Virus genome (UHGV): UHGV-0342645
Source: a virus
Reading direction: 5' to 3' (one strand)
DNA: 59,919 bases
In this document: one piece after another, positions 125-27,145 of the stretch
How the letters are laid out: the number at the start of each line of letters is the position of its first letter
Numbering within the stretch: position 1 is the first letter of the stretch
The notes under the pieces: generated by a model
What the model was told of the DNA's origin: nothing
The model's input: only the letters and a program-made list of their open reading frames with translations
Databases searched by the model: none
Program-made: the position numbers and the translations under genes

Positions 125-1621
125 CTATTCTTTATCGGAAGCGTCGTCTTCCTTAGGATCTTTGTTTACTTGCTGCTCTGCGTTTAAATCAGCTTTAGCA
201 TCATCGGGCAGAGGCCACTTCTTAAGCTCTTCTTCAAGAATTGCCATTTCTTCTTCAAAGCTTAGTGTGGTCAAGCCCTGATCAACAAGCCAGCCATGAA
301 TAGACTGCAAGCTGATCGGAGCCTTAAGGTTGCGTGCAGTAATAATTTGAACAAAGTCCTGACCGTTAAACATGCTCTTGGTAAATTCAAGATTAGGCTT
401 AACCACAACCTTCTCTGGATCAGCACCCATCCATTTAGCACAAACCTTCAGCAAGTTTTCCAAACCTGCCGCACCAGTATACGCAATTCGAATCAGGCTA
501 GCGGTACGCGCAGCAATACGCGTTTTCATAGCTTCGCCCGATTCCTGCGTGCTCTTGGTGTTGTTTACCATCTGCCCGGCTTTAATCTGAGCTTCTTGCT
601 TATCCGCTGCTAATGCGAGGCGTTGCTCGGACAAACCGTCACCGCTAACGCCTACATATTTAGCGTCACCACCAATAGCAACGTTAATGACCGCTCCAGG
701 ACCGATGCGCTGAGGGGCTTTATCTCCATTCTCCCCAGTACCGCCAACAACAACTAATGTGTCCTGCCCCTGCATATGCAGACTCTGACGGTAATCAGCA
801 TCACTTCGGTACATGCTTAGGCAGATGTTAGCTAGCCCCAATAATGGTGGCGCTTCCGGTGCTGGGGTAATATCTGTCGTATTAACAAACTGGAAAGGTA
901 TTTCGTCCAGCGTGTTACCTTTATAATAAGGAGCAATCATTTGCCCTTCATCATAATTGGTATTGTTGATAAACAAATGCTGGGAGTAGACCGCCCCACC
1001 TGCAACTTCATCTGTGTCCATCGGGCCTAATTGCAGGACGCGATAACGCTTCTCTTCTTTCCAGTCAAACTGATTGACACGTACAGGACCGCTTTCATCC
1101 AGAACAACCATGTTCAAGTTGATATTGCCTAATTCATCTTTACCATCATCCCAGTTGATAATGGATAAAGCATCATAAACGCTAATATAAGGTCTGTTAT
1201 TTACATCCTCACCTTTCGGCAAGTCCAGCAGCAGGCCCAAACGTCCATTTTTTAACTGCATTTCGTTGATGCGACGTAGCAGAGCAATAATGTCTTCACC
1301 GTCCGCAGTACACAGCTCCCGCATGTACTCCATTTCAGGAGGAAGCTGGATTGTAGGAGGCTTCTGGTGCAACAGACCTAAATTGTTTGTGACCGCACTT
1401 GAATAATCGTCAGGGAAGTTAGCACGCAGACGATAAGCAAGCCAACGTTGAAAGCCCAAATCATTAGGATTATTCATCCCATCAATAATCATGGAAGCTA
1501 AAGGTGGTAGATATTTAACACCTTCTTCCTTAATTTTATCTTCACCCTCATAGCAGTCGTTGCACTTAACCCATGCATCCTTCCACTTGTCATATAGCGG
1601 GTGAGTTGCATCAATACCCAT
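125..1621 (-). CDS. portal protein
   Basis: 498-aa ORF immediately downstream of the large terminase in a terS-terL-portal order; size typical of portals; no motif-level confirmation. Confidence 0.6.
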   Translation of the reverse strand: MGIDATHPLYDKWKDAWVKCNDCYEGEDKIKEEGVKYLPPLASMIIDGMNNPNDLGFQRWLAYRLRANFPDDYSSAVTNNLGLLHQKPPTIQLPPEMEYMRELCTADGEDIIALLRRINEMQLKNGRLGLLLDLPKGEDVNNRPYISVYDALSIINWDDGKDELGNINLNMVVLDESGPVRVNQFDWKEEKRYRVLQLGPMDTDEVAGGAVYSQHLFINNTNYDEGQMIAPYYKGNTLDEIPFQFVNTTDITPAPEAPPLLGLANICLSMYRSDADYRQSLHMQGQDTLVVVGGTGENGDKAPQRIGPGAVINVAIGGDAKYVGVSGDGLSEQRLALAADKQEAQIKAGQMVNNTKSTQESGEAMKTRIAARTASLIRIAYTGAAGLENLLKVCAKWMGADPEKVVVKPNLEFTKSMFNGQDFVQIITARNLKAPISLQSIHGWLVDQGLTTLSFEEEMAILEEELKKWPLPDDAKADLNAEQQVNKDPKEDDASDKE

Positions 1622-1632
1622 ATACCCTCCAG

Positions 1633-3192
1633 TTAAATACCGATAGTTTTACCAACACCTGTATAAACAGCTTGATCCAGAACCATATAACGTACTTCAT
1701 CCCCCATATGGTCTTCGCATTCCGTATCAACGTCGTCCTGATCTACTTCATCGCGCGGAAGACTTGGAACCAGCTCAAAGAAATAATTGCAATTATCGAA
1801 AACATACATTGCTGGATTTTCACGTGGTCCCGGCAAAGGTTTACCGTTTGCATCTTCCCGCAACGCGGCTTTAAGAAACTCACGCATTTTCTGCCATCCG
1901 CGTTTACGCGACCCAGCAGATTTATCACTTCTCTTCCAATGGATGCCGTTATACAGCTTGCCGTTGAGACGGATTTTCTTCGCCATTGTTGCAGCGGTGG
2001 AGTTATTGTTCTCCAGATCCCAAATAGAATTATCCGCAGGTCCAGGAACTACACGGTCGTGTATGCCCCAGGCCAATTCCCGCTCCAGTATACCGCTTGC
2101 AATCTCTGAGTCCAGCAAATGTAGACCTTCGTTTGTTTTACCGTTAGTGCCGTACCATTCGTTAATACGGAACAAGTCACCGCGTACAGTAGAGAATGTA
2201 GTACCGTCCTCACGTACAACATCCGAACCGTCACTAATAGCCCACCAGCCAACGGAGAATGGTTTTGAAGAACCCCAGTCGAAAGAACGTGTAATCTTCC
2301 AGCTTGATGGGATTGGGAATGGGCGTATTTTATGAACAGTGCTACGCCACAGATCATCGAACATACCGCCGGAGGTGATATCCCAGCTACCGCCTAACCA
2401 TGCAGCTCGTTTGTTCGGATCTGTGATGGACATAAGCTCTGCAATATATTTCGGGCTCAGGTTTTTGTTCTCGCGGTAAGATCCGAAGATATGGCATTGC
2501 GTCGTAACCACATCTTCCTCTTTCTGCGTCCGCGGGTTAAACACTCGCGTAGTTTTCCTGAGTATCTTACCCATCGGTGCAGCATCAATGAAGCGTTTCT
2601 TAACCCAGTTATGCCCCGCACCAAACGGGTTACTGGTAGCAAATACTTCCAGAGGAATGTCTGGTAAATATGTGACAGTACCGTCCGGATCGATAATTGG
2701 ATTATCTTCGGGTAGGAAGGATGAACGGTTACAGGACATCATTGCTTCAAACAAACGCCCGTCCGGATACTTTGTTAATTCGTTCCATCCGATAAACGGG
2801 TATTCGTGACCATGATAAGACCAATAATCCTTTTCTTTGCAAGCAACACGGAACAGCAATTCTTCCCCAGTGGGCCAAACCCATTTATAATCAGACTTCG
2901 AGCTAAGGAATTTAGCACCATCTTTAAATTCAGGGAACCAACGCTGTGATTTGGTTACAAGGTCATCAAGGTTTTTATATTCACGATCGAATATAATACC
3001 CTTCCAGAATTTACCGTACCCTACGCCAACATTCTTACGGAAACGCATAAGCTGGCAGTCCGTCTTTCCAGGACCGCGAGTACCGTGGTATAAAATGATA
3101 TCAGCAGGACAGGATAGAGCGAGTGTCTGTGAACCTGGATGTGGCTTCCAGACTACTCGCGGCATGTTATCAGGTTGTCGGTTTAGCTCCAT
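1633..3192 (-). CDS. terminase large subunit
   Basis: 519 aa; N-terminal P-loop-like GTRGPGKT; overlaps the small-subunit gene; followed by portal. Confidence 0.75.
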   Translation of the reverse strand: MELNRQPDNMPRVVWKPHPGSQTLALSCPADIILYHGTRGPGKTDCQLMRFRKNVGVGYGKFWKGIIFDREYKNLDDLVTKSQRWFPEFKDGAKFLSSKSDYKWVWPTGEELLFRVACKEKDYWSYHGHEYPFIGWNELTKYPDGRLFEAMMSCNRSSFLPEDNPIIDPDGTVTYLPDIPLEVFATSNPFGAGHNWVKKRFIDAAPMGKILRKTTRVFNPRTQKEEDVVTTQCHIFGSYRENKNLSPKYIAELMSITDPNKRAAWLGGSWDITSGGMFDDLWRSTVHKIRPFPIPSSWKITRSFDWGSSKPFSVGWWAISDGSDVVREDGTTFSTVRGDLFRINEWYGTNGKTNEGLHLLDSEIASGILERELAWGIHDRVVPGPADNSIWDLENNNSTAATMAKKIRLNGKLYNGIHWKRSDKSAGSRKRGWQKMREFLKAALREDANGKPLPGPRENPAMYVFDNCNYFFELVPSLPRDEVDQDDVDTECEDHMGDEVRYMVLDQAVYTGVGKTIGI

Positions 3193-10548: not shown

Positions 10549-10731
10549 TCACGATGTCCAGATGTTTTGGTCGATTAATTTTGCATAGAAGTCGCGCCCT
10601 GTCTGCATGGCTTGGGACCAGTTGGTTTCTTCCCATTCCATGCGCATAACCTGCAATAATAACGCGTGTTGTGCGCGGGTAAGTTTGTTTTTACTGGACA
10701 TAATATACCTCTGCATAGTTAAGTTAGCCAT
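10549..10731 (-). CDS. hypothetical small protein
   Basis: 60-aa ORF (or 50 aa from internal ATG with GAGG RBS); first gene downstream of the candidate leftward promoter. Confidence 0.35.
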   Translation of the reverse strand: MANLTMQRYIMSSKNKLTRAQHALLLQVMRMEWEETNWSQAMQTGRDFYAKLIDQNIWTS

Positions 10732-10782
10732 TTTGTGTACCCCTTTAAGTTAAGTTTTACTGTATTACCTTGCTATGTGTAT

Positions 10783-10811
10783 ATAGTAATGCTAGACCTA
10801 AAACTTGCCAA
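10783..10811 (-). promoter_or_regulatory. candidate sigma70-type promoter for the leftward early operon
   Basis: Minus strand TTGGCA-17 nt-TACTAT followed by an AT-rich leader to the ORF at 10731. Confidence 0.35.
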
Positions 10812-10948
10812 GTGTTTTTGCACTTTTTATAAAAATATTTTGGCACCTTTTATGCCTGCGTGTGCGTGCCCGCGCGTATAGTGCAATTCGTGTGATGTTA
10901 GTTAGGCCGTTTGTGCTAAACATGCAGGGCAAGCATAATTTTCACTAG

Positions 10949-11206
10949 ATGCAAAACAATATCAAAATAGCACTTTTGGCCTATTCAATATCACGATGCA
11001 AGGCTATTATTACTTCAACAAAGCAATACTGCTTAACCACATTAGGTAGCATCATGGAATTCAAATTAGTGGGACTCGAGTCCGGTAAAATAGCTGGTTA
11101 TGTATCTGCTCCAAGCTGGGAAGAGGCCGAAATCTTCTTAATGGGTCAGTTCGATATGTACATTAGCGAAATTTACAAAGAATACGATTTAGTCCAAATT
11201 AAGTGA
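10949..11206 (+). CDS. hypothetical protein
   Basis: 85-aa ORF; start uncertain (internal MEFKLVGLE possible). Confidence 0.25.
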   Translation: MQNNIKIALLAYSISRCKAIITSTKQYCLTTLGSIMEFKLVGLESGKIAGYVSAPSWEEAEIFLMGQFDMYISEIYKEYDLVQIK

Positions 11207-11596: not shown

Positions 11597-12169
11597 ATGT
11601 CTAAAGTAACTCACCGCGAACAGGACAAAATGCGCTACACCATGAAAACGAATGCACGCCGCGCCCTTAAGACCCGTTGGGGCCAGGTTGCACGCGATGC
11701 ACACGAACAGTTAATCCATCAGGACGATATCGGTTTTTACATCGTCGAAAAGGAAGTCCTTCAGGTTCTGCGCGACCATGAAAAAGCTCAAAAGCCGGAG
11801 CAGAAAGTCCCAGCACCGACCGCCGCGCCAGCTGCCCGCGTCTCGGTACTGCGCCCGATGGTAAATCCGGAAATCGTCAAAAGCTGCCTCGAAGCTCTGG
11901 AGCAGGAGGAAGAGAAAGATATGAAACACGCAAAAGCTGCCGCACCAAAACAGGATGCAAAAGCTGCTCGCTGTGATTTCAAAAATGGCGCTCGCAAGCC
12001 GCTCAAAGGAAAAACTGCCGAAGTGTGGGCAATGGGTGACAAACTTCTGAAGGAACTGGGCCGCACGCCGGAGCTGAAAGAAATGAAAGCTGCAATGCCT
12101 TCTTACAACGGGACAACTGTTGCCATTCAGTTCTACGCCTGGCGCAAATATAACGACCTGGACGCATAA
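11597..12169 (+). CDS. hypothetical protein
   Basis: Internal ATG (MSKVTHREQ) preceded by AAGGAG RBS; 190 aa, basic, Ala/Lys-rich centre. Confidence 0.45.
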   Translation: MSKVTHREQDKMRYTMKTNARRALKTRWGQVARDAHEQLIHQDDIGFYIVEKEVLQVLRDHEKAQKPEQKVPAPTAAPAARVSVLRPMVNPEIVKSCLEALEQEEEKDMKHAKAAAPKQDAKAARCDFKNGARKPLKGKTAEVWAMGDKLLKELGRTPELKEMKAAMPSYNGTTVAIQFYAWRKYNDLDA

Positions 12170-12209
12170 TCTATAACCACACTGTTCACTGACGGCTTCT
12201 GCGGGAGCC

Positions 12210-12545
12210 CTATTTAAGATAAAGATTTTCAATCATATCGTTTTTCGGGTCGTTAATATACTTCCCGAAGACAGCTTTCTTACCCTGCGGCCCGTGGAAC
12301 ATTTCGTACACAATACGGGTCCGTAACACTTTACGGTTTTCCCCGCCACAAATTGGAGCAAGACTAATCCTAGCTTGCAGATGAGCAGCGCATATATCCT
12401 TAGCTTCGTCACCTTTAGTTATGCCATATTTTTTAAAAGACTTCTTCCAGAATAAATCCCCGTCGCGGTATTCAAAATATTTATTCCAATTAGGTTCCTT
12501 CTTCCACCAGTGCTTTTCATAATCCCATTCAAGGCTCATAGTCAC
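12210..12545 (-). CDS. HNH/NUMOD-like homing-endonuclease relic (degenerate)
   Basis: C-terminal RTRIVYEMFHGPQGKKAVFGKYINDPKNDMIENLYL follows the HNH_3 pattern (HRLV..F.GNP...VNHIDGNK.NN..NL) but lacks the catalytic His; opposite strand to flanking genes. Confidence 0.3.
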   Translation of the reverse strand: MTMSLEWDYEKHWWKKEPNWNKYFEYRDGDLFWKKSFKKYGITKGDEAKDICAAHLQARISLAPICGGENRKVLRTRIVYEMFHGPQGKKAVFGKYINDPKNDMIENLYLK

Positions 12546-12754
12546 TCCTCTTGATGATTTAATTTGCGCGCGCTACGTAAGACAGCCTCCTTAGACTTGT
12601 TATCGCGGCTGCGGCTACCCGTGTTACCGGACCGCTGCAATAACTCCTCTCTGCCTTAACGCAGATTATAGCTTGATATACCTTCCGATCACAATAGTTC
12701 AATAAATTTGCCTCAAAAGCACTTGACTTCTCGTTTTTGATCTGCATCCGTTCA

Positions 12755-13230
12755 GGTTTATGAAAGTTTATAGAGTTTATATTGTGAAGTATAAACAATC
12801 ACATAATACCAATAGGTACTATATACATTAATAATAAATCCTTATTTTATATATATTTATAGTTATTATTAATATTAGTTTAATTTGGTTTATTTTAGTT
12901 AGTTGACTGAAAGTTTATAAGTTTATAGGGGTATACTCCCAACTTTTTTCAGATAATTAATAGTATAGTAGTGATAGTGGTTTTTGCACGTTTTCACTAC
13001 TACTACTAATTATTTGTTTGAAAAGGGGGTAATAAGGGGAAACCGTAAACTTATAAACTTTGCTCTGTGTAAAAATAAAAAATTAGTGAATAGTGAGATA
13101 GTGGTTCATAGTGGCAAACTTTTACAAAGCGAGTAACGACGCACTATACACATTTTGCCCACTATGTACGCCACTAAGCACTATATTAAAACAATCCTTG
13201 CAAATAGCTAATGTCTGTTTTATAGTGGCT
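12755..13230. repeat. AT-rich iteron-like repeat region (GTTTATA and ATAGTG/CACTAT motifs)
   Basis: GTTTATA copies at ~12756, 12766, 12775, tandem AGTTTATAAGTTTATA at 12912-12927, inverted copy at 13047-13059; at least 8 ATAGTGG/CACTAT-type motifs between 12960 and 13230; no credible ORF. Confidence 0.6.
13198..13226 (+). promoter_or_regulatory. sigma70-type promoter for the rightward operon
   Basis: TTGCAA-17 nt-TATAGT, about 28 nt upstream of AGGAGG RBS and the ATG at 13254. Confidence 0.55.
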
Positions 13231-13253
13231 TCACCAGTTGACTAGGAGGATTT

Positions 13254-13982
13254 ATGAGCGAAGAAACTATTACGTCTAAAACTGTGGTTAAAGATTTGTG
13301 CTATGTTGCATGGGTTGCTCAAGCTTGCTCGCAGTTGCGCGGTGCACCAACCAAATCACAGGCGCTTGCTATGGTGGAGAATTACTTCAACGATGATTTG
13401 GAACAGCCAGTTAAAAAATCTGTAAGACCGAAAGCGGGAAAGCTGGATGCAGAACGGGCGACTTTTCTTGCATGGGTTAGCGATAAGCTGGGCCATGAAC
13501 TGGATGCCAAAGAGCTTCGCAGCTATACGGGCAAATTCAATTACCACACGGGCAAGGGTAACGACCCATATGAAGAAGCATTTAAGGTGAAAGAAGATAA
13601 GGGTAAGGTAGGGCGCAAGGAAAACGTCGAGCTTAAAGCATGGATAGAGCGCCAAGCTTTGCTCAAAGGGGATTCTCTGACAGATAAGGAAGCGGATAAA
13701 TTGACACATCGTTGGTACAGGATGCGCCGGAGCGGCGATATCCAGGACTGGGATAATCGCGGTCGCTGGCCTACCTGTTCCCTGCACCATTACGAAACCG
13801 CTACCGCTATCCGTGTCAAGCTTGGCGCTCATTGGGTAGACCTTGCAATATACAAGGATGCTGAGCAGGCTAAAAATATTCTTCCGAACATTGATAATTG
13901 GCTTATTAGCTTAAGACAGGGAAGGGAACCACAGGACGTTATGTTAGAAGTTGGTAACCATATTATCACAACTCCGCACTAA
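13254..13982 (+). CDS. hypothetical protein
   Basis: 242-aa ORF with AGGAGG RBS; first gene of the rightward arm. Confidence 0.55.
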   Translation: MSEETITSKTVVKDLCYVAWVAQACSQLRGAPTKSQALAMVENYFNDDLEQPVKKSVRPKAGKLDAERATFLAWVSDKLGHELDAKELRSYTGKFNYHTGKGNDPYEEAFKVKEDKGKVGRKENVELKAWIERQALLKGDSLTDKEADKLTHRWYRMRRSGDIQDWDNRGRWPTCSLHHYETATAIRVKLGAHWVDLAIYKDAEQAKNILPNIDNWLISLRQGREPQDVMLEVGNHIITTPH

Positions 13983-14047: not shown

Positions 14048-14251
14048 ATGGATCACGAATCGGAATTTGATTTGAACTACATAACGGCGGCGGAAATCGA
14101 AGACCGTTATGGCATATCTAAGTTTAAGATGTCGCGCATACGTGATAGCATCCCGGGCGCTATCAGAATTGCTAACCAGTACATCTACAAACGTTCCTTA
14201 GCGGTGCCCGCCCTGGAAAAGATGCAAGGCGATAAGCGTCGGAGGTCATGA
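14048..14251 (+). CDS. small putative DNA-binding protein
   Basis: Internal ATG with GGAGGG RBS; ITAAEIEDRYGISKFKMSRIR is only loosely helix-turn-helix-like, so the DNA-binding call is tentative. Confidence 0.35.
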   Translation: MDHESEFDLNYITAAEIEDRYGISKFKMSRIRDSIPGAIRIANQYIYKRSLAVPALEKMQGDKRRRS

Positions 14252-14463
14252 TGGTACTTAGTGAAGTTGGACAAAATAAGCTTCGGGAGCAGGGTTGGTT
14301 TATTGGGCATTACATGCATTACCGCACAGCTTATATTATGGTTGCTGGGACTATTGTTTACCTTGGACATTATGAGAGCTATCTGGATGCAGAGAAAGTC
14401 ATCAACAAGACTAAGGAGCACTTATTAGTCGCCATCGGTTGCGCAATGGTTAGTTCTCAGTAA
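14248..14463 (+). CDS. hypothetical protein
   Basis: 71-aa ORF overlapping upstream stop (ATGA). Confidence 0.35.
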   Translation: MMVLSEVGQNKLREQGWFIGHYMHYRTAYIMVAGTIVYLGHYESYLDAEKVINKTKEHLLVAIGCAMVSSQ

Positions 14464-14474
14464 AAGGATAAATC

Positions 14475-16817
14475 ATGGAACTGTTTCCCGCTGAAATTAA
14501 AGCTTTCCCACAATGGGCGGTCGCTGATGCGGATAAAAAGCCGCTTGTATGGGACAACGATATCGGACGTTTGATGGCGGCGGACGTTACCGATCCGGAT
14601 ATGCTAATGACGTTTGAAGCTGCCAAAGGTTGCGCTGCTCATTTCAATAAACCTTATATTGGCTTCGTGCTTACTGCGCAAGACCCGTTCACCTGCATCG
14701 ACCTGGATGTAAAGAACGCAACCAATGAACCTGATCCCAAGAAGCACACGACGCCGGAACAGTTGCGCCGCTTCGAACAGATTATGACCGCGTTCGATAC
14801 TTACACCGAAGTAAGTCGCTCAGGATTGGGCGTCCACCTGTGGTTAAGAGGTAACATCGGTAAAGGTCGTCGGCGTGATGGTGTCGAGGTTTATAGTCAG
14901 GAGCGTTTTATTATCTGCACGGGTAATCCTGTCTATAACAAACCAGTTGCAGAACGTGATCATTATCTTACTATGCTTGTGAATGAAATTGATCTTCAGC
15001 GCAAGACATATGAAATTGAACTGGTAGAAAAAGATCCGGTAGAAGACGACGCAACTATTCACCAGCGTGCGCTTGAAGCAGACAACGGCGATAAGTATGC
15101 ACGCCTCTTCAATGGTGAATGGGTTGAAATGGGATTCCCTTCCCAGTCTGAAGCAGATCTTGCCCTTATTTCCATGTATGCATTCTACACAGAAAGTAAT
15201 GAGCAATGTCGTCGTCTCTTCCGTTACAGTGCACTGGGCAAACGTGAGAAGGCTAATAAGAACAATGTTCATATTGACCGTTGTTTACGCATGTGTCGTG
15301 GTCGCATGGAACGTGAGCGCATTGCTCAGGAAAACGTAGCGGCGCTGGCGCGGGATTACGCTGCCCGTATGCAAGCCGCACACAGTGCAATGCAGCAGGT
15401 AACAGAAATGCCTGTAACCGTCGAAACAACACAGGGGCAGACAGTAGTTGCAGAAAGCACATCCGTTGATGCAACAGCTATTGAATGGCCGCCGGGGCTT
15501 GCTGGTGAGCTTGCTAAATATATATACAAAGCATCCGTCAGACCAGTGAAAGAAATCTCTATTGTTACCTCGCTCGGATTTATGGCTGGGGTATGCGGGA
15601 AAGTATGGCAGATCCCGCAATCCGGTCTTAATGGATATTTTGTCTTAATTGCTCGTTCTGGTGTTGGTAAAGAGACGTTGAACAGTGGGCTGTCTAATAT
15701 AGTTAGCCAGATTCAGGACCAGTTTCCGCAGATTCATAGCTTTGTATCTTTTGATAGATGCGCTTCTGGATCTGCACTGCGTAAATCTTTTGCAGACAAA
15801 CAATCTTTTATCAACCTGAATGGTGAGTTCGGTAAGATTATCAAAGCAATGGCAACGGCTCCAGCAGGCTCGCCGATGCAAAGTTTCAAGAATGACCTTA
15901 CCGATGTTTATCAAAAGTCCGGTCAGATGTCTATCGTTGGTGGTATGTCTTATTCTGATAAGGCTAATAATACTGAAGCTCAACAAGGTGTGGCATATAG
16001 CATCATGGGCGAAACGACACCGGATACGTTCTTTGAAGCATTAACCCGTGAAATGATGGAGGATGGATTCTTATCCCGTTTCCATGTTGTACGCTATGAA
16101 GGTGATCGACCGCCTTTAAACAAAAATCAGCAGACTACAATGGATCAGCATTTGAAGGACATGGTGTGCCATCTTGTTAACCACACTTTAGTAACAATGG
16201 CAAAGCATCAGAGTATTGAAGTACAGTTTAGCCCGGATGCGGAAGCATTATGCGATCAGTTTAACGATGAATGTGATCGCAATATTAACGCAACCAAAGA
16301 CGAAGCAATCCGTCAGCCGTGGAACCGTGCTCACCTGAAGGTCTTGCGACTTTCTGCCTTGTTAGCCGTGGGTGAGAACTGGATCAATCCGGTGGTACAA
16401 ACCTATCATGTGCAATGGGCTTTGGACTTCGTGCGTCATGGGCAGGATATTATTATGAAGGAATGGCATAGCGGAGGCATTGGGACTAATGATGAAGCTC
16501 GTATCCGTACTATGTGTCAGGTCTGTGTGAATTATCTAACTAAAGACTGGGTGAAAGTTAAACGTGTAGATTTGCGCAAAGAAGGTATTATCACGCGAGG
16601 GGATATTACTACGCGTCTTGCAAGTAAGTCCGCGTTTAAAAACTATCATCACGGATTATCCGCTGCAATCGAGTCTACAATCAAGGAGATGGTTGCTATG
16701 GGTGCACTTGTTCCGGTAACACGGGAGGAGACTATTAAACTGGGATTTACTGGGGTAGCTTGGCGCATTACGCAAGATGTTGAAGGAATTATGGCAAACT
16801 TAGGTGAAGAGGAATAA
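14475..16817 (+). CDS. bifunctional primase-polymerase (AEP/Prim-Pol) with C-terminal NTPase-like domain
   Basis: Prim-Pol motifs CIDLDV (DxD), SRSGLGVHLW (sGxGxH) and VEVYSQERFIICTGN; C-terminal P-loop-like ARSGVGKET is non-canonical. Confidence 0.55.
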   Translation: MELFPAEIKAFPQWAVADADKKPLVWDNDIGRLMAADVTDPDMLMTFEAAKGCAAHFNKPYIGFVLTAQDPFTCIDLDVKNATNEPDPKKHTTPEQLRRFEQIMTAFDTYTEVSRSGLGVHLWLRGNIGKGRRRDGVEVYSQERFIICTGNPVYNKPVAERDHYLTMLVNEIDLQRKTYEIELVEKDPVEDDATIHQRALEADNGDKYARLFNGEWVEMGFPSQSEADLALISMYAFYTESNEQCRRLFRYSALGKREKANKNNVHIDRCLRMCRGRMERERIAQENVAALARDYAARMQAAHSAMQQVTEMPVTVETTQGQTVVAESTSVDATAIEWPPGLAGELAKYIYKASVRPVKEISIVTSLGFMAGVCGKVWQIPQSGLNGYFVLIARSGVGKETLNSGLSNIVSQIQDQFPQIHSFVSFDRCASGSALRKSFADKQSFINLNGEFGKIIKAMATAPAGSPMQSFKNDLTDVYQKSGQMSIVGGMSYSDKANNTEAQQGVAYSIMGETTPDTFFEALTREMMEDGFLSRFHVVRYEGDRPPLNKNQQTTMDQHLKDMVCHLVNHTLVTMAKHQSIEVQFSPDAEALCDQFNDECDRNINATKDEAIRQPWNRAHLKVLRLSALLAVGENWINPVVQTYHVQWALDFVRHGQDIIMKEWHSGGIGTNDEARIRTMCQVCVNYLTKDWVKVKRVDLRKEGIITRGDITTRLASKSAFKNYHHGLSAAIESTIKEMVAMGALVPVTREETIKLGFTGVAWRITQDVEGIMANLGEEE

Positions 16818-24257: not shown

Positions 24258-25166
24258 ATGGCTATTTATATTGCAGAAAAAACACTTCAAGCAATCAATG
24301 ACGGTGTGCAAAAAGATCAGGGCGGGACTTACCGTAAATATCTCGGCGTAGTTATTCCTACAATTGAAGACGCATATCGTCCTGAAAGCGGAAACCGCAG
24401 CCACTTAGGCGCTTCCCTTATTGGACAACAATGTGCTCGCAAGCTGTTCTACGGATATCGCTGGGCTACGCGTAAAGAGTTTGATGGACGCCAGCTTCGA
24501 TTGTTTAACCGCGGACATCTGGAAGAAGCGCGCTTTATTGCTATGCTTCTTGCGGCAGGTATGCAGGTCTACCAGCAGGATGAAAACGGACACCAGTTCC
24601 GTATTAGCGAAGCTGGCGGACACTTTGGTGGTTCCTGTGATGGTGTGGTTATAGGTTGTCCGGATGTTCAGCCTGGGATGCCTGTGCTTACTGAAATGAA
24701 GACCCACAACGATAAGTCTTTCAAGAAACTGAAAGCTAAAGGTGTCAAAGAAGCTAAACCTGAGCACTATGTGCAGATGAACGTGTATATGCGAAAGCTT
24801 GGACTTGGTGCAGCGTTATATCTTGCTGTAAACAAGAACGATGATGAAGTTTACGCAGAAATTATTCCATTTGATCCGGTCACTGCGGACATGTATATTG
24901 ATCGTGGTGTGCAGATTGCTATTGCTACGGATATTCCTGACCGTGCATTCAAAGACTCTACCTTCTTCGAATGCAAATGGTGCGACCACTCCTCATTGTG
25001 CTGGCGTAAAACTATGCCGGAAGTAAACTGTCGTACATGTCAATTTCTTGAGCCAAAAGATGATGGAACATGGTATTGCAATTTCCATTCCGTTGCAGTA
25101 GATACGCAGGGTCAAAAAGTTGGTTGTCAAAACTATCAAGTAGCTAACTATTACGGGAAAGATTGA
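24258..25166 (+). CDS. Cas4/RecB-like PD-(D/E)xK exonuclease with C-terminal Cys cluster
   Basis: N-terminal GASLIGQQCARKLFYGYR, central D/E/K residues, C-terminal CKWCDHSSLC...CRTC...C cluster. Confidence 0.45.
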   Translation: MAIYIAEKTLQAINDGVQKDQGGTYRKYLGVVIPTIEDAYRPESGNRSHLGASLIGQQCARKLFYGYRWATRKEFDGRQLRLFNRGHLEEARFIAMLLAAGMQVYQQDENGHQFRISEAGGHFGGSCDGVVIGCPDVQPGMPVLTEMKTHNDKSFKKLKAKGVKEAKPEHYVQMNVYMRKLGLGAALYLAVNKNDDEVYAEIIPFDPVTADMYIDRGVQIAIATDIPDRAFKDSTFFECKWCDHSSLCWRKTMPEVNCRTCQFLEPKDDGTWYCNFHSVAVDTQGQKVGCQNYQVANYYGKD

Positions 25167-27145
25167 TTATGCATCTCCGCGATTATCAACAGGAAGCAGT
25201 TTATAGCGTATTCCGCTATTTTGATGCCGAAAAGGGTAACGCGGGGAACCCTTTGATCCTGTTACCAACAGGGACAGGAAAATCGCTCGTTATCGCGGGG
25301 TTCCTCGATCTGCTTTATAAATGGTATCCAAACCAGCGCGTAATGATGTTAACTCACGTCAAAGAGTTGATCGCGCAAAACTATGATAAATTAATGAAAG
25401 TCTGGCCTGAAGCGCCAGCAGGTATTTACAGCGCTGGTTTGAAGCGTAAAGAAGTTTATAATCTTATCACATTTGCGGGGGTTGCATCTGTTGCTAAGCA
25501 TCCTAAAAAGTTTGGCAAGGTTGATCTAATCTTTGTGGATGAAGCGCACCTTATTAGTCCTCGTGATGCAACAATGTATAAGAAGTTCTTTGCAGCATTG
25601 CGTGAAGTTAACCCGTATTTAAAAATTATCGGTCTTACCGCTACACCTTATCGACTGGGTTACGGCTCAATTGTTAAGGAAAACGAAGACGATGATGCTT
25701 TATTTGATAAAGTAACGTTTGATGCAACTACCCCTGAAGCCTTTAACTGGTTCCTGGAGCAAGGCTATTTGCTTCCGGTTGTGCCAAAGCGTACAAAGAT
25801 GGAACTGGACCTCAATGGTGTAGGGAAACGCGGCGGTGAGTTTATTCAGAGTGAGCTGCAAAGTGCGGTAAACCGCAACGACGCAACACTCCGCGCACTT
25901 GAGGAAGCCATTGAATGCGGTGAAGACCGTCAAAGCTGGCTTATATTTTGTTCTGGCATTGAACACGCTAAAGATGCGTGTGACATGCTGAACGATATGG
26001 GTATTAGTTGCGGATGTATTCACTCAAAGCTTGATGCAAAAGAGCGTGATGAAATTATTGAAAAGTTCAAGCGCGGGGAGTTTCGAGCATTAACGAACAA
26101 CAACGTCTTAACCACAGGTTTCGACCATCCGATGCTCGATCTAATTATTATGCTCCGCCCAACTGCCTCGGCGGTGCTATGGGTTCAGATGTTGGGTCGC
26201 GGTACGCGTCCGGTATACGCGGAAGGCTTTGATCTTTCCACGCAGGAAGGCCGCTTGCAAGCTATTGCAGCAAGCCCTAAGCAAAACTGTCTTGTACTGG
26301 ATTTCAGCGGTAATACGCGTCGTTTGGGCCCTATTAACGACCCTGTTAAACCCAAGCGCCCGGGCGAAAAAGGTGCTGGCACTGCTCCGGTTAAAGAATG
26401 CGATGTGTGCGGGTCGTATAATCATGCATCTGCTCGCTATTGCGGTGGCTTTGCACCAATTCCTATGGACAGCGTTACACAGGAACAAGTTCAACAATTA
26501 TATTTGAAGGGATTCAGACTACGTGGAACGGATTATGTTAAAGAAGGATTTTGCGGTCATGAGTTTAAGTTCCAGACCAAACTTAAAAAGGCAGCAAGTA
26601 CCGAAGCATTGATCAAGCAGGACATTCCTGTAGTTGAAGACTTTAAAGTTACGCATGTTACTTATGCGAAGCACACTAAACGCAATGACAGCTCTAAACC
26701 TCCAACAATGAAGGTGACTTATTATTGCGGTAGTAAAATATTCAGCGAATGGGTAGCTCTGCTTCATGGTGACTGGGCAGGTCGTAAAGCGGTTGCATGG
26801 TGGAAGAAAAGGACGCATCTACCTTTACCACAAACTATTGAAGAAGCTCTTGATGTTGCTGCAATGCTCAAAACGCCGAAATACATCAAAGTTCATACCA
26901 ATAAGAAATGGCCTGAGATATTGAACTATGATTATGATGGTACGTGTTTCGGTAAGTTTGAAGCACCACAGGAAGACGAAGCTATTCAAGTTAAAGTATA
27001 CGGGCAAGATGGAACAACCGAAGGTCCAAGCTATAACGATGATGTGAGCTGGGATGATATTGTTTCGCAGAATACGCAAGGTATAACAGTGAACAATGTG
27101 GTTAACCCTGTACAAGTAGATGATCCGGATTACGTTCCGTTCTAA
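25163..27145 (+). CDS. SF2 DEAD/DEAH-box DNA helicase
   Basis: Motif I LLPTGTGKS, motif II FVDEAHLIS, later GRGTR-type motif; C-terminal Cys/His-rich region. Confidence 0.7.
   Translation: MIMHLRDYQQEAVYSVFRYFDAEKGNAGNPLILLPTGTGKSLVIAGFLDLLYKWYPNQRVMMLTHVKELIAQNYDKLMKVWPEAPAGIYSAGLKRKEVYNLITFAGVASVAKHPKKFGKVDLIFVDEAHLISPRDATMYKKFFAALREVNPYLKIIGLTATPYRLGYGSIVKENEDDDALFDKVTFDATTPEAFNWFLEQGYLLPVVPKRTKMELDLNGVGKRGGEFIQSELQSAVNRNDATLRALEEAIECGEDRQSWLIFCSGIEHAKDACDMLNDMGISCGCIHSKLDAKERDEIIEKFKRGEFRALTNNNVLTTGFDHPMLDLIIMLRPTASAVLWVQMLGRGTRPVYAEGFDLSTQEGRLQAIAASPKQNCLVLDFSGNTRRLGPINDPVKPKRPGEKGAGTAPVKECDVCGSYNHASARYCGGFAPIPMDSVTQEQVQQLYLKGFRLRGTDYVKEGFCGHEFKFQTKLKKAASTEALIKQDIPVVEDFKVTHVTYAKHTKRNDSSKPPTMKVTYYCGSKIFSEWVALLHGDWAGRKAVAWWKKRTHLPLPQTIEEALDVAAMLKTPKYIKVHTNKKWPEILNYDYDGTCFGKFEAPQEDEAIQVKVYGQDGTTEGPSYNDDVSWDDIVSQNTQGITVNNVVNPVQVDDPDYVPF

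Follow-up and report, generated by a model that had tools for sequence, protein, structure and literature searches.

At the papillomavirus origin, sites for the E1 helicase lie beside an AT-rich segment and are interleaved with E2 sites that also regulate the adjacent promoter. In lambdoid phages, the iterons of the origin and the DNA-binding part of the initiator O change together while the rest of O is conserved; the lambda origin lies inside the O gene and contains four 19-bp iterons. The O/ori pair of Stx phages is an example of this lambdoid arrangement (PMC7466680). In P4 alpha, a primase is fused to an SF3-type helicase with a C-terminal winged helix, and pRN1 ORF904 combines a prim-pol with an SF3 helicase and has a C-terminal winged helix that was proposed to function in origin recognition (PMC2777425). 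In PICI, two sets of iterons flank an AT-rich segment beside the gene, and the Pri-Rep proteins occur as allelic variants (PMC6092414, Fig. 2 legend). The NrS-1 polymerase has an SF3 helicase core plus Head and Tail domains of unassigned fold, and the Tail was reported to be required for hexamer assembly, not to be an origin binder (PMC7102993). For this enzyme, an 8-nt priming site that the N-terminal 300 aa recognize has been proposed as the origin (PMC7102993, PMC8718748). Priming by its prim-pol is most efficient at 5'-GTGA-3' and 5'-GTGG-3', and 5'-TTTGGTTA-3' is used as well (PMC8718748).

The window considered here is the whole stretch of DNA that was analyzed (59,919 nucleotides; UHGV virus genome UHGV-0342645). 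By match to related phages it is the genome of a Seuratvirus (Queuovirinae, siphophages of E. coli), and its closest relatives are KurtStettler, KS_A3 and SLUR75 (~94% identity). Queuovirinae are E. coli siphophages with 7-deazaguanine-modified DNA, several of which are in the BASEL collection. In a limited literature search, we found no description of an origin or replication control region for Seuratvirus or Queuovirinae.

Genes of the window are arranged in a leftward block (125 to ~10731, plus 59876 down to 39918) and a rightward block (~10949 to 38163). The strand switch at the level of the genome is near 10.8 kb, where a 220-bp non-coding stretch (10731-10949) separates the two blocks. 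The repeat region that is the subject of this analysis lies ~2 kb inside the rightward block, directly upstream of an operon encoding gpA, gpB, gpC and a primase-helicase. A preliminary description placed it between divergent arms. This is correct locally but not genome-wide, as the rightward arm starts near 10.95 kb and the left neighbor is a lone HNH endonuclease insert, which gives the region its divergent look. The insert is on the opposite strand and separates the phrog_22313 gene from the control region. It is also present in SLUR76, Dru_SM1 and contig L014, and is missing in KurtStettler and CAjan, where a 327-bp plus-strand gene is followed by a terminator. No tRNAs were identified in the window. 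The features of the locus are listed below, where F1 and F2 are the two families of short repeats (GTTTATA and ATAGTG, respectively, in the window).

12210-12545, minus strand: HNH endonuclease gene (phrog_99), a lone insert and left neighbor of the repeat region
12665-12694, minus strand: putative leftward promoter, sigma-70-like, TTGTGA-18-TATAAT, matching the consensus at 10 of 12 positions
12756-12797: F1 cluster A, three direct sites (GTTTATG, GTTTATA, GTTTATA) and one inverted site (TATAAAC)
12798-12900: AT-rich core, a candidate DNA-unwinding element
12911-12928, plus strand: F1 cluster B, tandem AAGTTTATA AAGTTTATA
12946-13024: central imperfect palindrome, converging F2-type sites TAGTATAGTAGTGATAGTGG ... 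CACTACTACTACTA
13046-13061, minus strand: F1 cluster B', inverted copy of cluster B, TAAACTTATAAACTTT
13083-13116, plus strand: F2 direct array, adjacent sites TTAGTGA, ATAGTGA, GATAGTGG and CATAGTGG at spacings of 7, 8 and 10 bp
13141-13186, minus strand: F2 inverted array of four sites, GCACTATA, CCACTATG, CCACTAAG and CACTATAT
13198-13226, plus strand: candidate operon promoter, TTGCAA (13198-13203), 17-bp spacer, TATAGT (13221-13226)
13222-13228, plus strand: ninth F2 site, ATAGTGG, overlapping the -10 of the candidate promoter
13254-13982, plus strand: gpA, 242 aa, an orphan protein (phrog_27223) without a Pfam domain
14048-14251, plus strand: gpB, 67 aa (phrog_11967)
14248-14463, plus strand: gpC, the operon gene between gpB and the primase-helicase
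14475-16817, plus strand: prim-pol/SF3-type helicase, 780 aa, with NrS-1-like HBD and DUF3987

The primase and the SF3-type helicase are encoded in one polypeptide (Pfam NrS1-1_pol-like_HBD and DUF3987; PHROG DNA primase/helicase families). The Pfam matches and the domain order are those of the NrS-1 polymerase, from which the SF3 assignment was taken (PMC7102993). A winged helix was identified at the C-terminus (approximately aa 700-766; nt 16572-16772). P4 and PICI likewise have a primase and an SF3-type helicase with a C-terminal winged helix, fused in P4 and paired in the PICI Pri-Rep proteins, and their short repeats also occur in direct and inverted orientation. Unlike P4 alpha, however, the window encodes an NrS-1-like AEP prim-pol rather than a primase of the DnaG/Toprim kind. 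Thus, the protein falls outside the P4 alpha family and the similarity is one of layout. The locus also differs from P4 and PICI in that the putative origin is upstream of the operon rather than downstream, and in that a second, independent repeat family and the orphan gpA are interleaved.

The repeats reported in the preliminary description are all present. Six copies of GTTTATA were identified in 12766-13058 (four on the plus strand, two on the minus strand), compared with 20 in the whole window, and a GTTTATG variant of F1 occurs at 12756. The F1 consensus, AAGTTTATA, has four of its five window copies inside 12756-13228. The tandem AGTTTATAAGTTTATA is at 12912-12927 and its inverted copy is at 13046-13061, 120 nt away, with 16-nt arms that are 100% complementary. 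Also present in 12974-13227 are eight ATAGTG/CACTAT motifs in both orientations (five on the plus strand, three on the minus strand), which represent 8 of the 24 ATAGTG copies in the 59.9-kb window. All five window copies of ATAGTGG are within 12974-13228, and there are 12 copies of the TAGTG core in the region. Counts were compared with those in 5,000 simulated sequences (first-order Markov, with the local dinucleotide composition of 12740-13260). The observed values were reached in none of the simulations, for GTTTATA, AGTTTATA, ATAGTG, ATAGTGG and TAGTG alike. Short repeats are thus clustered beyond chance in a non-coding stretch, as at iteron origins. Outside the region, AGTTTATA occurs three times in the window, about the number expected by chance; two of these copies (25198 and 25453) are 255 bp apart, at the start of an SF2 helicase gene (25163-27145). 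An 8-mer, AGTTGACT, occurs twice. One copy (12901-12908) immediately precedes F1 cluster B and is part of a block conserved in most relatives, and the other (13236-13243) immediately precedes the gpA ribosome-binding site.

The region was described as about 470 bp without credible ORFs. No ORF is conserved across the relatives, and the ORF-free stretch is longer than claimed (12546-13253). A hidden small gene was considered, and the two candidates, a 44-aa ORF (13111-13245) and a 50-aa ORF (12984-13136), are conserved in the closest relatives only. The 44-aa plus-strand ORF, which overlaps both the promoter and the F2 inverted array, is annotated as a hypothetical protein in two BASEL relatives, KurtStettler and SeppeHuegi; the annotation is probably spurious.

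The most conserved part of the region is a 44-bp block (12665-12708) that contains the putative leftward promoter. It alone is common to all 34 related phage records, some of which share nothing else here. In relatives without the HNH gene, the leftward promoter would fire antisense into the terminator of the upstream gene. The sequence of the AT-rich core is highly conserved across every F1 and F2 type, and its GC content is 20% and then 10% in successive 50-bp intervals (12800-12899). F1 clusters A and B flank this segment, an arrangement expected of an iteron origin. The cumulative G-C curve of the whole window has its minimum at 12800, a position that is confounded by gene orientation, notably that of the minus-strand HNH insert. 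A search for DnaA-box and IHF consensus sites in the region returned one relaxed DnaA-box match, at 13066, and nothing else.

On the right, the candidate promoter TTGCAA-17-TATAGT is present at 13198-13226 and is followed by a ribosome-binding site and the gpA start. The term near-consensus, which had been applied to it, is an overstatement, as it matches 9 of 12 consensus positions. A promoter scan returned four promoter-like sites, compared with 4.0 expected from shuffled sequence, so the case for an operon promoter is based on position and conservation. The -35 is kept in the window, KurtStettler, SeppeHuegi, CAjan, SLUR76 and L014, and six phages, including both F2 types, have an F2 site of their own type at -31 to -33 relative to the gpA start codon. 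This site would cover the -10 of the candidate promoter, a 9/12 match from a scan at chance level.

The segment 12900-13070 has a strong predicted fold as single-stranded DNA (-26.2 kcal/mol, z = -5.5), and in CAjan-type phages both arms of the palindrome are arrays of TAGGG/CCCTA. Given this hairpin and the retention of the inverted arrangement in relatives, the 150-nt imperfect palindrome (12910-13061) could be a structured RNA or a packaging (cos/pac) site. We consider this scarcely credible. The arms consist of the same short motif at differing spacings and are not strictly complementary, and the motif also occurs in direct arrays that are not palindromic. An Rfam scan of 12000-13600 returned only a chance miRNA match (E 0.55), the terminase and portal genes (125-3192) are ~10 kb from the repeat region, and the repeats co-vary with proteins of the replication operon, as described below.

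The locus was compared with its homologues in 11 GenBank phages and three metagenomic contigs. All share the same architecture, and the repeats are replaced as whole families, in register. F1 is of type I (GTTTATA) in the window, KurtStettler, SeppeHuegi, CAjan, slur01, SLUR76 and L014. It is of type II (GTTTTNG, inverted form CCAAAAAC) in SA80RD, SA126VB, Dru_SM1, GottfriedDienst and Skure, and of type III (ATTTTAT(G/A)) in L009 and L011. Cluster A is swapped in register to GTTTTGTG/GTTTTGCG/CTTTTTGT...CCAAAAAC in type II phages and to ATTTTATG/ATTTTATG...TATAAAAT in type III phages. In type II phages, cluster B becomes AGTTTTAGGTTTTTGG and cluster B' becomes CCAAAAACCCAAAACTTT.

The F1 partition, which changes at every cluster, is the same as the partition of the primase-helicase C-terminal part into types I, II and III. 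Identity of this part within types is 97-100%. Between types, identity falls to 67-79% for aa 280-680 and to 26-62% for aa 640-780, whereas the N-terminal 280 aa differ little from type to type (92-100% identity; type I vs. type II mostly 100%). At the nucleotide level, the window and SA80RD are 89-94% identical in the flanks and 77-81% identical in the module. In the 34 GenBank records, a type I tail (identity of 98.9% or more) and a retained type I left half of the region always occur together, in 16 records; the remaining 18 all have a type II tail. A search for homologues with the primase tail alone returned no match.

Simple linkage does not explain this correspondence, as F1 is separated from the primase C-terminal part by the primase N-terminus, which is nearly invariant, and by the gpA/F2 module, which assorts independently. 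CAjan and KurtStettler have the same F1 and primase but different gpA and F2, as do L009 and L011, and SA80RD and GottfriedDienst have the same F1 and primase although gpA is present in the former and absent in the latter. The relation of F1 to the tail is not one-to-one, however. Hafnia phage yong3, which is without gpA, has a fourth C-terminal type with a different predicted recognition helix, and yet carries five copies of GTTTATA, some fused to CCCC (CCCCTATAAAC; L019 2674-3383). Co-variation of iterons and initiator, as seen at iteron origins, was thus found in the 14 phages and in the 16/18 split, with few switches and with yong3 as an exception. At the loci that were fetched, F1 switched independently about twice and F2 once, in addition to the presence or absence of gpA, and genes elsewhere could partition likewise. 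The primase-helicase tail is the candidate F1-binding segment suggested by this pattern. In NrS-1, by comparison, the proposed origin is read by the N-terminal part, whereas the repeat type in the window follows the C-terminal part and the N-terminus is nearly invariant. We count the reported role of the NrS-1 Tail in hexamer assembly (PMC7102993) against a model in which the tail reads F1.

The first 40 aa of the primase differ (75% identity) only in L002 (7171-7290) and L014 (5599-5720). In both, an HNH gene is inserted immediately upstream of the primase, and the altered start looks like a homing co-conversion tract. Providencia phage PSTCR4, Pantoea phage Vid5 and the Nonagvirus FritzHoffmann have no clearly equivalent region at the same place and were left out of the evidence. 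In FritzHoffmann, an AT-rich stretch without annotation (L018 330-520), ~3 kb upstream of the primase gene, contains CTTTATAAA repeats and may be the Nonagvirus counterpart of the region.

F2 occurs in two forms. ATAGTG(G) is present in 6-10 copies in seven phages that share one type of gpA residues 51-115 (nt 13404-13598), and five phages of the other type at these residues have 5-12 copies of ATAGGG(T). The ATAGGG(T/A) sites of CAjan, slur01, SLUR76 and L011 are at equivalent distances from the gpA start codon. Identity over residues 51-115 is 70% and 64% within the two F2 groups and 37% (maximum 43%) between them. Whole-protein gpA identity does not cleanly separate the groups, and the other three gpA segments show no split by F2 type. 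Three phages without gpA (GottfriedDienst, Skure and yong3) also lack the F2 array. Thus, we infer that gpA is the candidate F2-binding protein, acting through residues 51-115. The gpA family is small (10 clusters in a large protein collection). Its structure was predicted with medium confidence (pLDDT 73.5), with helices at 8-46, 61-108 and 125-160 and a beta-beta-beta-alpha C-terminus. We found no significant structural or sequence match to gpA and no recognizable DNA-binding fold.

A third repeat family, GGAATAAT/ATTATTCC, is present in seven to eight copies in GottfriedDienst (L015 3540-3590, 3825-3900 and 4200-4215) and Skure (L016), and in four copies at the left edge of Dru_SM1 (L006 1880-1925). 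In GottfriedDienst and Skure, two small proteins replace gpA, one of which has a weak AP2 match.

The protein encoded at 14048, gpB, had been suggested as a binder of the repeats, and its counterpart in yong3 is annotated as 'regulatory protein cox'. We find no support for this candidacy, as gpB type tracks neither F1 nor F2. L011 has a gpB that is 70% identical to that of the window, yet its F2 is of the GGG type; the gpB of CAjan differs from that of the window, yet F1 is the same.

F2 copies read TAGTGA or TAGTGG on both strands, and the NrS-1 prim-pol prefers GTGA and GTGG (PMC8718748). It is therefore conceivable that F2 sites are templates for de novo priming by the prim-pol on both strands, with synthesis in both directions. 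This seems very improbable. The primases of CAjan, slur01 and SLUR76 are 98-100% identical to that of KurtStettler (650 aa, including the whole prim-pol/HBD part), but these phages carry ATAGGGT rather than ATAGTGG at all sites, and such near-identical primases with different motifs lead us to reject F2 as priming sites. In addition, F2 type follows gpA rather than the primase, and likeness to a GTG motif over 3-4 nt is expected by chance.

The in-register replacement of each family, matched to a specific protein segment, indicates co-evolving protein-DNA recognition and is strong evidence, from comparison of sequences, that both repeat families are functional protein-binding sites. The original suggestion of a replication origin or clustered regulator operators is thus upheld insofar as the arrays appear to bind proteins. 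Of its two parts an origin is favored, and the operator reading fits as well, given the F2 site that overlaps the -10 of the candidate operon promoter. Each family changes with a different protein of the neighboring replication operon, and on balance we consider that 12.66-13.25 kb probably combines a replication origin with an autoregulated promoter for the gpA-gpB-gpC-primase operon. An origin is favored because F1 sets flank the core and F1 tracks the winged-helix end of the primase-helicase, and because of the position upstream of the replication operon and the cumulative G-C minimum at 12800, the last being confounded by orientation.

If transcriptional control were the only function, F2 sites would be operators for gpA, F1 sites would be operators for another regulator, and replication would have another starting point, such as a recombination event or a site within a gene. 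The F2 site over the candidate operon -10 in six phages, the arrays immediately upstream of the promoter, the two promoter-like elements that face outward, and the extra F1 copies beside the gpA start in type II phages are all consistent with such control. However, F1 tracks the winged-helix end of the primase-helicase rather than a dedicated regulator. Most F1 and F2 sites are 150-500 bp upstream of the promoter, around a core of 10-20% GC, which exceeds what operators need, and the layout matches the iteron sets that flank the AT-rich segment of PICI origins (PMC6092414). We therefore view purely transcriptional control as a serious but unlikely explanation.

For the fused origin and promoter, the following mechanism can be proposed. 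The C-terminal winged helix of the primase-helicase would bind F1, with one set to the left and two to the right of the core, so that helicase would be positioned on either flank of the most easily melted segment. This would parallel what has been proposed for P4 alpha and the PICI/SaPI Pri-Rep proteins. F2 sites form converging arrays in the palindrome and four direct and four inverted sites upstream of the promoter, with one more over the -10. Through residues 51-115, gpA would bind these sites and could have two roles, as an accessory factor at the origin and as a repressor of its own operon. More speculatively, transcription from the two putative outward promoters (12694-12665 leftward, 13198-13226 rightward) may leave negative supercoils between them that aid opening.

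In layout, gpA would correspond to papillomavirus E2 and the primase-helicase to E1. The analogy is limited to layout, as gpA is not homologous to E2 and the DNA-binding domain of the helicase is C-terminal in the window. The locus differs from lambda in that its sites are 7-9 bp in length, of two kinds and non-coding, and gpA is unrelated to O.

Iterons that are matched to an initiator beside an AT-rich segment are a well-known kind of element, and as the iteron-initiator principle is well established, the gain here is local rather than conceptual. Less ordinary are the two interleaved specificity modules that are exchanged independently, and the orphan gpA family. The comparison provides a testable map of the probable start of replication and of the 7-9 bp sites that are relevant. 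It also predicts the segments that read them (primase aa 700-766 and gpA aa 51-115), for which natural swaps are potential specificity mutants. A likely role can be assigned to the orphan gpA family, as can one for the C-terminal tail of NrS-1-type prim-pol helicases, the function of which is poorly understood. More tentatively, and with rather low confidence, the origin may require two keys: a new, unclassified DNA-binding module of gpA that reads the heptad arrays and a winged-helix tail that reads F1, both needed and swapped independently among co-infecting phages. If so, each phage would have a private replication identity, which could limit cross-replication and exploitation between relatives.
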